Numbered from the stretch's first letter, positions 11,532 to 57,761 are shown. The stretch is DNA of 64,000 nt from Lachnospiraceae bacterium (GCA_031263035.1 JAISGP010000142.1:14224-78223); one strand, 5' to 3'. Notes: a model not told the origin generated them from the sequence alone. Numbers and translations are program-made.

Positions 11532-12476
11532 ATGACATTTATTGAAGATATAAAAGAGGGAGAGACAATCTCCTCTATTTATTTGGTTAAAACAAAAAGA
11601 CAGTTACAGACTAAAGCCGGAAAAAGTTATGAAGATATAACTCTTCAAGATAAAACAGGCAATCTCAATGGTAAAATTTGGGATCCTAATTCAGGGGCTA
11701 TAGCAGACTTTGATGAAATGGATTTTATTGAAGTTTTCGGACAAGCCAATATGTATAACGGTGGGATGCAATTAAATGTTCGAAGAGTAAGAAAAGTTTT
11801 CCCAGATGAATATAATATTGCAGATTACATGCCTTCATCAGATAAAGATGAAGAAACTATGTATAATGAACTACTTTCATACATTGATGGTATTAAGAAT
11901 GAATATTATAAAAAGGCATTAAAGTATTATTTTGTAGAAAACAAGGAATTTATTGCTAGTTTTAGATCTCATTCAGCAGCTAAAACTGTTCATCATGGAT
12001 TTGCAGGAGGGCTTTTAGAACATACTTTAGCGGTAGTTCGAATTTCAGATTTCTTTGCAAATACTTATGATTTTTTAAATCGAGATTTACTTTTAACTGG
12101 AGCAATCACTCACGACATTGGAAAGACAAGAGAGCTTTCTGATTTCCCATCTAACGATTACACAGATGAGGGAAATCTCATCGGTCATATTGTTATTGGT
12201 GTGGAGATGATTGATGAGGCAGTAAGAAGTATACCTGATTTTCCAGTGGTTCTTGCAAATGAATGGAAGCATCTAATCCTGGCTCATCATGGAGAGCTGG
12301 AATTTGGTTCACCAAAGAGACCTTCTCTTGCAGAGGCGTTTGCACTTAATTTTGCTGATGTTGCTGATAGCAAGTTGCAGACACTTAAAGAATTATTTAA
12401 AGAAAAAAAGGGTGAGGGTTGGTTAGGATATCAGAGACTTTTTGACTCTAATATTAGAAGGACAAGTGAAGAGTAA
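11532..12476 (+). CDS. yhaM: 3'-5' exoribonuclease YhaM-like (OB-fold + HD domain)
   Basis: 314 aa with an N-terminal OB-fold-like region and HD motifs (HHGFAGGLLEHT, THDIGK, LAHHGE). Confidence 0.8.
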   Translation: MTFIEDIKEGETISSIYLVKTKRQLQTKAGKSYEDITLQDKTGNLNGKIWDPNSGAIADFDEMDFIEVFGQANMYNGGMQLNVRRVRKVFPDEYNIADYMPSSDKDEETMYNELLSYIDGIKNEYYKKALKYYFVENKEFIASFRSHSAAKTVHHGFAGGLLEHTLAVVRISDFFANTYDFLNRDLLLTGAITHDIGKTRELSDFPSNDYTDEGNLIGHIVIGVEMIDEAVRSIPDFPVVLANEWKHLILAHHGELEFGSPKRPSLAEAFALNFADVADSKLQTLKELFKEKKGEGWLGYQRLFDSNIRRTSEE

Positions 12477-12477
12477 T

Positions 12478-13959
12478 ATGCAGTATACGAAGAATAATCG
12501 GTTAAAAATAGAGATAGAGGATATTAGCAGTGATGGATCTGGAATTGGTCATGTGGATGGATATACATTATTTGTAAAAGATGCCCTTCCTGGAGACATA
12601 ATAGATGCCAAGATAATTAAACCTAAGAAAAATTATGCATTTGCAAGGATAGAAGAGATAATAAAGCCATCTAAGGATAGAGTTACCCCCAGATGTCCTA
12701 TTTCGAAGCCTTGTGGCGGTTGTCAAATACAGGGATTAGAGTATAATAAGCAATTGGAATTTAAAGAGAATAAGGTGAAAAATAATCTTGTTCGCATAGG
12801 AAGTGTAGAGGAAAGTCTTGTAAATGAAATTACCCTCTCAATTTTAGGGATGGAAGAGCCATTTAGATATAGAAATAAGGCTCAATTTCCCATAGGGGAG
12901 GATAAAGATGGAAACCTTGTGGCAGGATTTTATGCAGGAAGAACTCATTCCATTATTCCTGTAGATGATTGTGTTATTGGAAGTAAAAATAATAAAGAAA
13001 TCCTGCAGATTGTCCTTGATTTTATGGAGAAAAACCATATTTCAGCGTATAACGAAAAGCTTCATGGAGGACTAGTGAGACATGTGCTGATTAGGGAAGG
13101 ATATATTTCTGGTGAAATTATGGTTTGTCTAGTTATCAATGGCAAGACTTTACCTAAGTCAGAAAAACTTATTGAAAGATTAAGCAAAGTTACCGGAATG
13201 ACTAGCATTGTATTAAATATTAATACGGGGAATACAAATGTTATTCTAGGTGATAAAATCAAAGTATTATGGGGAGAACCATATATTACAGATAAAATTG
13301 AAGATTTAACTTTTAGAATTTCACCTCTTGCATTTTATCAAGTTAATCAAGTTCAAACAGAAAAGCTTTATAATAAGGCTTTAGAATTTGCAGGTTTAAC
13401 AGGCAAGGAAATTGTATGGGATATTTATTGTGGAATTGGGACGATTTCCCTTTTCTTAGCTAAAAAAGCTAAGAAGGTTTATGGCATTGAAATTATTCCG
13501 GAAGCAATTGTTGATGCAAATGCAAATGCAAGACTTAATGGTATTTCTAATGTAGAATTTATGGTGGGAGATGCTAAAGAAGTATTGTGTGAAGAAGTAA
13601 CTAAGTTTAATAAAAATACCTTAGGAAAAGATTTGCAAAATTCTCAAAGTATTGAAAATACATATTTAGATGAAGATAAGTCGATTTTACATAAAGAGAA
13701 TAAATGTAATAAAACAGATATTTTTGCAGATGTAATAGTAGTTGATCCTCCAAGAAAAGGTCTAGATGATGTTACAATTCAAACAATGGTTTCAGTAGCT
13801 CCAAAGAAAATAGTCTATGTAAGTTGTGATTCAGCGACTTTAGCACGAGATATAAAGATATTTAGAGAAAATGGATATGAATTAGAGAAAGTTCAGCCGG
13901 TTGACATGTTTCCCCAAACTGTCAGTGTTGAGACATGTGTTCTTTTGTCACGAAAATAG
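12478..13959 (+). CDS. rlmD: 23S rRNA (uracil-C5)-methyltransferase, RlmD/RumA family (TRAM + 4Fe-4S + SAM MTase)
   Basis: It has a TRAM-like N-terminus, the cluster cysteines CPISKPCGGCQ, DIYCGIGT, VVDPPRKG and a catalytic Cys region (VYVSCD). I prefer the ATG at 12478 over the listed 12442 start, which would overlap yhaM by 35 nt. Confidence 0.88.
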   Translation: MQYTKNNRLKIEIEDISSDGSGIGHVDGYTLFVKDALPGDIIDAKIIKPKKNYAFARIEEIIKPSKDRVTPRCPISKPCGGCQIQGLEYNKQLEFKENKVKNNLVRIGSVEESLVNEITLSILGMEEPFRYRNKAQFPIGEDKDGNLVAGFYAGRTHSIIPVDDCVIGSKNNKEILQIVLDFMEKNHISAYNEKLHGGLVRHVLIREGYISGEIMVCLVINGKTLPKSEKLIERLSKVTGMTSIVLNINTGNTNVILGDKIKVLWGEPYITDKIEDLTFRISPLAFYQVNQVQTEKLYNKALEFAGLTGKEIVWDIYCGIGTISLFLAKKAKKVYGIEIIPEAIVDANANARLNGISNVEFMVGDAKEVLCEEVTKFNKNTLGKDLQNSQSIENTYLDEDKSILHKENKCNKTDIFADVIVVDPPRKGLDDVTIQTMVSVAPKKIVYVSCDSATLARDIKIFRENGYELEKVQPVDMFPQTVSVETCVLLSRK

Positions 13960-14284: not shown

Positions 14285-14896
14285 TCAGCCATTTAGTTTA
14301 TCAAATAGAATAATTGAAGAATTGTTTTTGGTATTGATTAATTCCTTTTTTAGAATAATTCTTTGTCTTTGATTTTCTGTGAAATCATTAGTTTCCTTTT
14401 CAAAGACAGAGATACATACAAAAGTTAAATCATCTTTTTGGACTTTATCGTTAGTATGTATTAAAAAAACATAACTATATGGTCGGATATTACTTGTTAT
14501 TATATATTCGGCTTTTATATTGGAGGAAAAAGAATAGAGCATTTGTGGTCTAAAATAAAATAGACTAAAATCATTTTTTATAATTTCATTAATGTTAGAT
14601 AAGACGTTCAATCTAGGTAGTATTTCATTAAAATGTATACTTTTTGATATGTAATCTAAAGTAATCGTGTTTTCTAGAATATTATGTAGTAGTTTATTTG
14701 GTTTTAAATATTTAGGGAAACGAGTATCTGTTAGTTTGTGGAAACCAGCCAAATGATAAAAATCACTTTCATTAAATTTAAGTATAATTTTATTAAGTTG
14801 CCGTTTATATCCATATGTAATAATCAGTTGTTTATTTAATAAAGTGTTCCATTCTTTGGCGGCTTTAATAAGTATATTATTAGCTTGTTTATTCAT
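14285..14896 (-). CDS. PBECR4-like (Barnase-EndoU-ColicinE5/D-RelE fold) predicted nuclease domain protein
   Basis: 203 aa from the ATG at 14896 (RBS AAGAGGTGA). The pattern ...LKFNESDFYHLAGFHKLTD... and the C-terminal ...RQRIILKKELINTK...ILFDKL match my recollection of PBECR4-annotated Firmicute proteins. This was not verified by an HMM. Confidence 0.5.
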   Translation of the reverse strand: MNKQANNILIKAAKEWNTLLNKQLIITYGYKRQLNKIILKFNESDFYHLAGFHKLTDTRFPKYLKPNKLLHNILENTITLDYISKSIHFNEILPRLNVLSNINEIIKNDFSLFYFRPQMLYSFSSNIKAEYIITSNIRPYSYVFLIHTNDKVQKDDLTFVCISVFEKETNDFTENQRQRIILKKELINTKNNSSIILFDKLNG

Positions 14897-14917
14897 TGTC
14901 ACCTCTTGTATGTTTAT

Positions 14918-15080
14918 AAAAAAAGAGCCTTGCGTTAGCAAGACCCTTAAAAGCGTTTTTAATGTCGGTTCGTGGTTATCGCATAACCCATAGTCGGACT
15001 CCGTTGCTAACCCAATACCGACAGGACTAGCAATTTCATAGTCAACGATAGCTACTCTTGGTGCTACCCTATGTCAGTAT
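14918..15080 (-). promoter_or_regulatory. Candidate structured 5' leader / riboswitch-like attenuator (class unknown) upstream of the PBECR-like gene
   Basis: This ~160-nt stretch is visibly richer in G+C than its flanks.
- Helices (plus-strand coordinates): a 7-bp helix 14963-14969/15017-15023 and a 6-bp hairpin 14974-14988.
- Terminator: GGGUCUUGC-UAAC-GCAAGGCUC followed by U7 (14918-14946). Its G-U pairs form only on the minus strand.
- Competing pairing: an 8-bp alternative pairing (15004-15011 with 14934-14941) overlaps the terminator 5' arm.
- Position: the U-run ends about 20 nt before the start codon. Confidence 0.55.
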
Positions 15081-15357
15081 AGTAATATATATTAAGTTTG
15101 AATTCTATAGGCAATTTGCACAAAAATAGAAAATGAAAACATGGGAGGATATTCGTCATGACTTTAAAGAGAATTAGAATATAAAATATAAGAAATTCTT
15201 ATAATATTTTAGAAAAACATGATGAAAATACATGAAGATTTGTTTCTTTCAGTTTAATAAAATGACATGATATAGTCAATAGAGGTTTGTGTGAAATTAA
15301 TATGTTTAGTTAGACTTGCCAATAGGTAGGTCTTTTTTAGTATTAATCAAAAAGGTA

Positions 15358-15386
15358 TTGACATATGATAATTATTGTGTTATTGT
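15358..15386 (+). promoter_or_regulatory. Candidate sigma-A promoter of the ABC exporter operon
   Basis: TTGACA, a 17-nt spacer, then TATTGT with an upstream TGn element. It lies ~120 nt upstream of the ATG at 15506. Confidence 0.4.
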
Positions 15387-15505
15387 ACTAATAACTTAAT
15401 ACAGTAATATGGCAATACAGAAGAAGCGAGGAAGCATTATACTTTATTTGCAAATAGTATAATTAAAGAAAACAGTGTATGAATTAATAAAAGGAGGATG
15501 AAAGA

Positions 15506-57586: not shown

Positions 57587-57589
57587 ACA

Positions 57590-57712
57590 TAACGATATTA
57601 ACTGCCTAAGACAGCAAGGGAAGGTAACTTCGTAAGAGCATGTATTTGCCCCTCGCCGAGGACGTAATTAAAATAATAATTACACCCCATGTCTTAATGG
57701 CATGGGGTTTTA
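57590..57712 (+). promoter_or_regulatory. Ribosomal protein L10 leader (autoregulatory attenuator) with intrinsic terminator
   Basis: A G+C-enriched structured segment (GCCTAAGACAGCAAGGGAAGG...GCCCCTCGCCGAGGACG) ends in CCCCATG / CATGGGG followed by TTTT (57684-57711), ~50 nt upstream of rplJ. This matches the layout of the Firmicute L10 leader. Confidence 0.65.
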
Positions 57713-57761
57713 TATTTATATAAGGCAGTGAATAAAAAATCTTAAAAGGAGGAAAATATTC

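Follow-up and report, generated by a model that had tools for sequence, protein, structure and literature searches.

A drum RNA gene adjoining a predicted PBECR4 ribonuclease gene: a conserved bacterial RNA-protein module with a possible toxin-antitoxin-like function

The locus and its features

The window, that is, the whole stretch of 64,000 nucleotides of Lachnospiraceae DNA that was analyzed, holds on its minus strand a candidate promoter, a structured RNA that ends in an intrinsic terminator, and a gene for a protein of the PBECR4 family (Table 1), which has a convergent tautomerase gene and a divergent ABC transporter as neighbors. The first-pass annotation of this sequence had taken the RNA for an unclassified leader with terminator/antiterminator logic in front of a nuclease-fold gene, and all the sequence features that it described are present on this strand where it had placed them. 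Among them is the contrast in base composition, with a G+C content of 0.41-0.44 over 14900-15049 versus 0.19-0.30 in the flanks.

Table 1. Features of the drum-PBECR4 locus, in positions of the window.
Feature	Position	Strand	Basis and remarks
Candidate sigma-70 promoter: TTGCCT (15114-15109), 17-nt spacer, TATATA (15091-15086)	15086-15114	-	Sequence; weak
5' hairpin P0: GGUAGC ... GCUAUC	15047-15068	-	Precedes the Rfam-defined core
drum RNA core	14948-15044	-	Rfam RF02958 alignment; the variable 17-nt hairpin of the family is absent here
Long hairpin P2: 15033-15024 with 15013-15004 (10 bp)	15004-15033	-	Rfam alignment and covariation; the 3' arm holds GUUAGCAA
Pseudoknot: P2 loop GUCGGU (15022-15017) with ACCGAC (14969-14964), 6 bp	14964-15022	-	Covariation
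Helix P3: GCG (14982-14980) with CGC (14955-14953), 3 bp	14953-14982	-	Rfam consensus and covariation
Intrinsic terminator: 11-bp stem (14948-14923), loop UAAC, U7 (14924-14918)	14918-14948	-	Terminator scan
RBS of the PBECR4 gene: AAGAGGUG	14900-14907	-	Sequence; RBS at the same position in homologues
PBECR4 gene, 203 aa, predicted metal-independent RNase of BECR fold	14285-14896	-	PF18813

The promoter proposed in that annotation does exist as a sequence, but it is weak: each hexamer matches the consensus at four of six positions and the -10 element lacks the final T, which is the reason why a consensus scan did not list it. The exact promoter site within this AT-rich stretch is uncertain. 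Transcription is expected to start near 15080-15072, because the promoters of homologous RNAs lie at the equivalent place and mostly end 10 nt before the 5' hairpin.

The 9-bp core of the terminator stem, GGGUCUUGC (14946-14938) paired with GCAAGGCUC (14933-14925), includes the two G-U pairs and is followed by the U7 tract that had been noticed before, and the terminator scan extends it to 11 pairs. This hairpin alone folds with -14.4 kcal/mol, and the 1.4 kb scanned holds three terminator-like sites, versus 0.4 expected from shuffled sequences. The distance of ~20 nt that had been given between terminator and RBS was slightly off, as ~11 nt separate the end of the U-tract from the RBS and 21 nt separate it from the ATG (14896).

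On the opposite strand, a terminator-like hairpin with a T-run (15312-15333, +) and promoter-like sites (15153-15187, +) were also observed. These signals (15150-15340, +) precede the ABC-transporter ATPase gene (15506) by ~170 nt and may mark either a small transcript or a leader of the divergent operon; an Rfam E-value scan of 14700-15500 gave no match for them. Much further along the window, positions 57587-57723 (+) hold a ribosomal protein L10 leader (RF00557, 66.9 bits), which is an ordinary element.

The PBECR4 protein

The protein encoded downstream of the RNA scores 93.5 bits against PF18813 in Pfam (cut-off 27, E = 2.8e-26), which bears out the earlier description of a gene of the PBECR type and places it in the PBECR4 family. 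The same sequence is recorded as a hypothetical protein in a Lachnospiraceae MAG; the nearest relatives are ~40% identical, and the family comprises 564 cluster representatives at E <= 1e-3. Residues H48 and R95 do not vary, and 14 of 15 diverse relatives have Ser or Thr at position 163. These conserved His, Arg, and Ser/Thr residues fit the active site that was predicted for the PBECR domain by Iyer et al. (2017).

The nuclease activity of this protein is a prediction derived solely from its Pfam family. When the AlphaFold model (pLDDT 82.7) was compared with the PDB by Foldseek, no significant match was obtained, and a search of PDB chains by sequence found nothing with PBECR4. Among the specialized collections, PADLOC gave no match to the protein, NCBIfam only a sub-threshold one, and PHROGs a match to a family with no assigned function. 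A tblastn search of GenBank phage genomes retrieved no PBECR4 relatives, although the drum-PBECR4 module is carried by IMG/VR contigs.

The RNA is a member of the drum family

The Rfam scan proposed in the first-pass annotation was run on the whole 64-kb window (Rfam 15), and it assigned the element to a known family, drum (RF02958), so that the label "unclassified" no longer holds. The match covers the full length of the model (positions 1-112 of 112) with 62 bits, above the gathering score of 43, and with an E-value of 3.3e-9, while typical relatives reach ~90-105 bits. For the element itself, drum was the only match, with no riboswitch or T-box reported. Every defining feature of drum that can be tested is found in the window: the score, the helices and the pseudoknot, the terminator, and the adjoining protein gene. 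What had been taken for a leader is a gene for the drum RNA. Its family was known before, and for this window the result amounts to a correction, from a new riboswitch to an existing Rfam family.

The drum RNA was described as one of four highly conserved motifs with Rho-independent terminators at the 3' end, seldom located in 5' UTRs and linked to a protein gene close by, which may have either orientation (Weinberg et al. 2017, PMC5737381; Nucleic Acids Res 45:10811). In that work it was judged an improbable riboswitch, and its high conservation was read as a hint of a sophisticated biochemical function; the main text of the paper does not name the partner protein. Since the element of the window is drum, a motif that is followed by such a terminator, the terminator of the first-pass annotation is the RNA gene's own. 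Drum has been a well-conserved orphan bacterial RNA since 2017: a literature search, including the main text of Weinberg et al. (2017), retrieved no paper giving it a function or linking it to PBECR4.

Conserved structure in homologous RNAs

The structure was studied in an alignment of 34 non-redundant RNAs running from promoter to RBS, the window copy included, and a consensus was also computed with RNAalifold. The order is promoter, 5' hairpin P0, pseudoknotted drum core, terminator, RBS, and PBECR4, with a core made of helices P1, P2, P3, and P4 and of a pseudoknot in which the P2 loop pairs with a strand further downstream. In the window, three of the four base pairs of P1 are formed, and this helix, like P2, P3, and the pseudoknot, covaries across the 34 RNAs. 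When P0, the pseudoknot, and the terminator are included, the structure consists of 50 pairs, for which 88.6% of the alignment cells are paired, versus 29-43% when the partners are slid by 1-3 columns. Compensatory change is observed in 44 of these 50 pairs, and none of 500 shuffles reaches the observed values. The covariation that the first-pass annotation had suggested looking for in homologous leaders is therefore found, and the strand-specific structured RNA is real.

The individual elements show the same behavior. Hairpin P0 is kept as GGAUAGC..GCUAUC in the homologues, with seven of eight pairs changing on both sides and 88% of cells paired. Compensatory change affects eight of nine pairs in the main P2 helix and all three pairs of P3, where 96% of cells are paired. 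All six pairs of the pseudoknot covary, as illustrated by combinations such as UCAAG/CUUGA, GCCAG/CUGGC, and GUCAGG/CCUGAC. A terminator occurs at the equivalent position of the aligned homologues, with covariation in nine of ten pairs; at least six of the eight bases after the stem are T in 25 of the 34 RNAs, and a spacer of roughly 10-20 nt leads from the terminator to the RBS. By contrast with this comparison, the fold of the single 169-nt RNA barely beats shuffled sequences (z = -1.81) and misses the consensus structure because of the pseudoknot. The evidence for the predicted structure is thus the comparison of homologues, not the single-sequence fold. No conserved small ORF inside the RNA was apparent by eye in the aligned sequences.

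Within the terminator, the inner stem CCUUGC...GCAAGG (alignment columns 195-200 / 211-216; window 14944-14938 / 14933-14927) is kept in most homologues, unlike the outer pairs, which covary freely. A second pairing or a role as a -35 element was considered for this sequence, with no consistent partner found and no promoter role shown, and shared descent is as likely an explanation for the conserved stem.

A near-consensus promoter, TTGACn-16/17-(TG)TATAAT, precedes P0 in 30 of the 34 RNAs. In none of them does a promoter-like site occur from the beginning of the terminator to the start codon. For this reason, a second candidate read by eye in the window, TTGCTA-17-TATAAA, which would hide a promoter for PBECR4 in the terminator and U-tract, is not relied on.

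The antiterminator of the first-pass annotation deserves separate treatment. The complementarity on which it was based does exist in this copy: every base of GUUAGCAA (15011-15004) is complementary to its counterpart in UUGCUAAC (14941-14934), a complement of at least 8 nt arises in only 1.7% of shuffles, and the fold forced into this pairing lies 3.9 kcal/mol above the minimum-energy fold. Nevertheless, the proposed antiterminator arm is the 3' arm of the long hairpin P2 of drum, and the alternative pairing would have to open this covarying helix, which counts against it. In the 33 remaining RNAs, the 5' arm and loop of the terminator have a best complement of 4-8 nt, which falls in scattered columns of the alignment, and in most of them complements to the 5' arm are at the level expected from shuffles. 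A conserved antiterminator was thus rejected.

Linkage between drum and PBECR4

The association of both genes was examined in two directions. Starting from the protein, 65 PBECR4 loci, taken from one genome per GTDB species, were each scanned with Rfam. A drum RNA above the gathering score was located directly upstream and on the same strand in 48 of them, the match mostly ending ~50-55 nt before the protein match; the order of RNA, terminator, and PBECR gene described in the first-pass annotation is accordingly conserved among relatives, as it is in the 34 aligned RNAs. In five further loci (L050, L052, L054, L055, and L063), from Peptostreptococcaceae, Romboutsia, Terrisporobacter, and Clostridium, drum follows the gene immediately but is encoded on the other strand. 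Two Selenomonas loci (L053 and L059) hold a diverged drum-like RNA with the same layout as the majority, and in four the contig offers no upstream DNA. The remaining six are fragmentary or weak protein matches (L048, L060, L064, and L065) and two loci with no drum match, L051, which was scanned at the gathering threshold only, and L062, whose contig ends at the expected site of drum. The tandem layout also extends to plasmids of Enterococcus and Streptococcus suis, whose PBECR4 proteins are ~30% identical to that of the window and are preceded directly by drum, ending ~40-60 nt before the coding sequence.

Starting from the RNA, a DNA pattern of the drum core was searched for with no protein information. 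It was found in 36 IMG/VR contigs, with PBECR4 directly downstream in 24 of the 33 that had room for it, and in at least 120 metagenome contigs. After three chance matches in high-G+C coding DNA and 13 matches with no downstream room had been dropped, 104 of the metagenome matches listed remained, of which 67 are in tandem with PBECR4 and 12 convergent with it (79 in all). The ~25 others among the matches listed include apparent deletions of the partner gene, an insertion of the IS200 type, and replacement by other genes. Altogether, about a quarter of the drum copies in IMG/VR and among the metagenome matches listed have no PBECR4 nearby. Some partners are in decay: in five loci (L026, L033, L040, L041, and L042), a frameshifted or truncated PBECR4 stands beside an intact drum. 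No intact close PBECR4 lacking drum was found.

The convergent arrangement is characteristic of two clades, one from Peptostreptococcaceae (e.g., L050) and one from the gut (e.g., L119), in which drum comes with a separate promoter and with a terminator located where the gene ends. The gene of L050 matches PBECR4 at 77.7 bits; the RNA there shows a TG-extended promoter of its own, and the RNA's terminator and the gene overlap at the 3' end of the latter. Against PF18813, a convergent ORF from the metagenomes reaches 108.6 bits, the stop codon of this ORF being directly adjacent to the terminator of drum. An RNA encoded on the opposite strand and convergent with the gene in two clades cannot be an obligate 5' leader, and these arrangements point to an action in trans.

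According to these data, drum is nearly always encoded beside a predicted PBECR4 ribonuclease, and this adjacency spans Clostridia, Bacilli, Negativicutes, and a Treponema MAG. There is little doubt that the drum RNA gene of the window and PBECR4 form a conserved module. As drum has its own promoter and terminator and PBECR4 adjoins it, this looks more like a pair of RNA and protein partners than like a riboswitch.

Genomic settings and copies of drum on their own

The module has been found on plasmids, in one case next to an AbiH gene, at the ends of prophages, where a serine recombinase and an endolysin flank it, and as an insert of ~0.9 kb between housekeeping genes. No conserved protein partner beside PBECR4 is present in the loci examined. 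The window and L009, a locus of another Lachnospiraceae MAG and the only one of the 65 with the same neighbors, share an RlmCD-type methyltransferase gene and an HD/OB-fold gene adjoining drum-PBECR4 (window 11532-13959; L009 5035-7382). The products of these neighbors are 53% and 51% identical between the two loci, and those of PBECR4 41%. The common neighbors suggest that the module has long resided at one chromosomal site.

Seven related IMG/VR phage contigs from metagenome 3300045988 (L066, L071, L076, L077, L086, L090, and L092) carry drum alone. In them, the RNA, with its terminator, directly follows lysis-type genes, a cassette coding for an M23/GH25-like lysin and for small membrane proteins, and PBECR4 is absent from the locus. 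This solo drum is convergent with a gene for a 207-aa acidic protein, for which Pfam gave no match. The drum region is identical in three of the seven contigs, and the differences among the distinct copies mostly keep the pairing of P2. The closest PBECR4-linked drums are mostly of the Faecalibacterium type, with modest similarity.

Other genes were also observed after drum copies with an intact promoter and terminator, namely an AAA_21/AAA_15 ATPase and a 247-aa ORF in L094 (IMG/VR), and a transposase insertion of the IS200 type in L067, L152, L168, and L217.

Other orphan RNAs were noticed in the neighborhood of the module. Less than 2 kb upstream of drum-PBECR4, L009 holds a DUF3800-XI RNA (1890-1937, +) between AlbA_2/Schlafen and AbiEi genes, and L029 a skipping-rope RNA (2491-2574, +); orphan RNAs tied to particular proteins seem to cluster. 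The Salmonella Dublin plasmid pSD853_7.9 (L107) lacks drum and encodes a Bacillus-plasmid RNA (RF01691, 59.5 bits; 1121-1174, -) on the opposite strand, with 285 nt between it and the distant PBECR4 gene that lies downstream. Such distant clades of PBECR4 may have other orphan RNAs as partners, as DUF3800 genes have 11 motifs.

Proposed mechanism: drum as an RNA antitoxin for PBECR4

In type III toxin-antitoxin systems, one promoter precedes a non-coding RNA, an intrinsic terminator, and an endoribonuclease gene that is made by read-through. Their antitoxin RNAs fold into pseudoknots, the systems reside on plasmids and prophages, and phages carry mimics of the antitoxins. The known antitoxins are tandem repeats of roughly 36 nt, and the toxins are ToxN-like.

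By analogy with them, a promoter near 15086-15114 would drive a small RNA of ~155-165 nt comprising P0, the pseudoknotted drum core, and the terminator hairpin, and most transcripts would stop at the intrinsic terminator near 14918. PBECR4, located 21 nt beyond and presumably devoid of its own promoter, would be made only by read-through of the terminator, given that a promoter-like site between terminator and start codon is missing from all 34 RNAs. With the protein coming only from read-through, the RNA would be in large excess over it in the cell. The drum RNA would act in trans on PBECR4, binding this predicted RNase toxin and neutralizing it.

We infer the toxicity of PBECR4, its binding by the RNA, and its neutralization from the layout, which matches that of type III systems, from the location of the module on plasmids, at prophage ends, and in small inserts between housekeeping genes, and from the lack of a conserved protein partner. 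The same reading is favored by the decayed PBECR4 genes beside intact drum, with no intact close PBECR4 found apart from the RNA, and by the phage contigs that carry drum alone. Counting against it are the lack of tandem repeats and of a ToxN-like protein, the absence of PBECR4 from PADLOC, the quarter or so of drum copies (among the matches listed) with no PBECR4, and, in the window, a weak promoter and a drum that is one hairpin short. In sum, the full mechanism, neutralization included, is a tentative proposal whose chances fall just short of even. Somewhat less probable is that drum-PBECR4 represents an unrecognized class of RNA-protein toxin-antitoxin or abortive-infection systems, in which a single pseudoknotted RNA of ~160 nt neutralizes an RNase of BECR fold and the drums found alone in phages are antitoxin mimics used for escape.

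The main rival is that drum is an RNA cofactor of a ribonucleoprotein, an obligatory scaffold that activates or targets the PBECR4 nuclease in the way that omega RNAs do for IscB/TnpB. This would agree with the tight linkage kept in several orientations, with the presence of drum beside every intact close PBECR4, and with the high conservation of its unpaired regions, which Weinberg et al. (2017, PMC5737381) read as pointing to a sophisticated biochemical function. However, the alignment contains no hypervariable segment resembling a guide, the variable parts being paired stems, and the intact drums that phage contigs carry alone would be useless in the absence of the protein. Antitoxin logic, moreover, predicts a terminator by which the protein is kept scarce compared with the RNA. 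The asymmetry by which decayed PBECR4 genes stand beside intact drum, with no intact close PBECR4 found lacking it, fits equally well an RNA cofactor that the protein needs. On balance, a role as cofactor is unlikely.

A function in cis is less probable still. PBECR4 could bind drum on its own nascent transcript and alter termination or translation, a feedback like that of ribosomal-protein leaders. The commonest arrangement, with RNA, terminator, and gene in one unit and no internal promoter, would suit such a leader, as would the small energy cost of the alternative pairing in the window copy. But cis feedback could not operate in the two convergent clades, the homologues share no alternative structure, and drums occur alone; this leaves the responsive leader as an improbable explanation.

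The reading favored in the first-pass annotation was a riboswitch or attenuator sensing a ligand or a tRNA, with mutually exclusive terminator and antiterminator controlling the nuclease gene. A highly structured RNA upstream of a gene, an 8-nt complementarity rarely reached by shuffles, and an alternative fold of only slightly higher energy made it attractive. Nevertheless, the lack of conservation of the antiterminator among the 33 homologues, its need to open P2, and the convergent and solo arrangements argue against it, the position relative to a 5' UTR being inconsistent: drum is convergent with the gene in the five opposite-strand loci of the protein survey and in at least 12 metagenome loci, and copies exist on their own. 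Moreover, nuclease toxin genes are not usual targets of riboswitches, and Rfam gives no match to the element other than drum. Together with the judgement of Weinberg et al. (2017, PMC5737381) that drum is an improbable riboswitch, this makes such regulation very hard to sustain.

Just as little credit can be given to drum being an independent small RNA with targets elsewhere, brought next to PBECR4 by shared mobile elements: about a quarter of the copies (among the matches listed) have no PBECR4 nearby and both partners occur on plasmids and prophages, but an adjacency of tens of nucleotides is kept at ~30% protein identity, across Clostridia, Bacilli, Negativicutes, and the Treponema MAG, and through changes of orientation, and the pairs of the window and L009 lie between housekeeping genes with no recognizable mobile element.

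Significance and comparison with known systems

The work names a partner for drum, the predicted RNase PBECR4, in an explicit and testable pairing. It also provides a fixed layout of promoter, RNA, terminator, and gene, together with convergent variants, phage copies on their own, and decayed protein genes beside intact RNA. Should PBECR4 prove toxic and drum rescue cells in trans, RNA-antitoxin systems would come to include a further toxin fold and an antitoxin RNA of a new kind, and modules frequently met with in human-gut Clostridia and on plasmids of Enterococcus would be given a function.

With the drum family as defined, the RNA of the window shares the helices and the conserved unpaired nucleotides UGAA, GGAG, GGGUU, ACCAC, and AAAACGC, the 3' Rho-independent terminator, and the proximity of an associated protein gene. 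It differs from the Rfam model in that the latter includes neither P0 nor the terminator, both of which are present in the window RNA. The partner is identified here as PF18813 PBECR4.

Riboswitches and attenuators resemble the drum module in the succession of structured RNA, intrinsic terminator, and gene. In contrast to them, drum has neither a conserved antiterminator nor a known ligand class, its place is not always a 5' UTR, and it does not always share its strand with the gene.

Closer parallels are found in the DUF3800-I to -XI and skipping-rope RNAs (Weinberg et al. 2017), which are likewise conserved and structured, in some cases with terminators, and associated with one protein family in either orientation, but have other structures and other partner proteins. 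The omega RNAs of IscB/TnpB (OMEGA) also are structured non-coding RNAs immediately beside a small nuclease gene. However, no guide segment is evident in drum and the module has no transposon ends; furthermore, the OMEGA nuclease is a RuvC DNA nuclease, while PBECR4 is a predicted RNase of ~200 aa.

The type III systems (ToxIN, AbiQ/antiQ, CptIN, and TenpIN) share with drum-PBECR4 the order of promoter, RNA, terminator, and RNase gene, the pseudoknots, and the location on plasmids and prophages. In fact, a terminator between RNA and gene and a single upstream promoter are what the aligned RNAs show (promoter upstream in 30/34, internal in 0/34). The differences lie in the components. The drum RNA is a single unit of ~160 nt with a complex fold, not a repeat array, and Tandem Repeats Finder detected no array of the canonical antitoxin type in 14918-15125. 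PBECR4 falls outside the ToxN, CptN, and TenpN families, as Pfam gives PF18813 only, with no match to ToxN/AbiQ, CptN, or TenpN, and PADLOC gives no match. In some drum clades, moreover, the RNA is convergent with the gene. On this comparison, drum-PBECR4 would work like a type III toxin-antitoxin system while standing apart from the known families.
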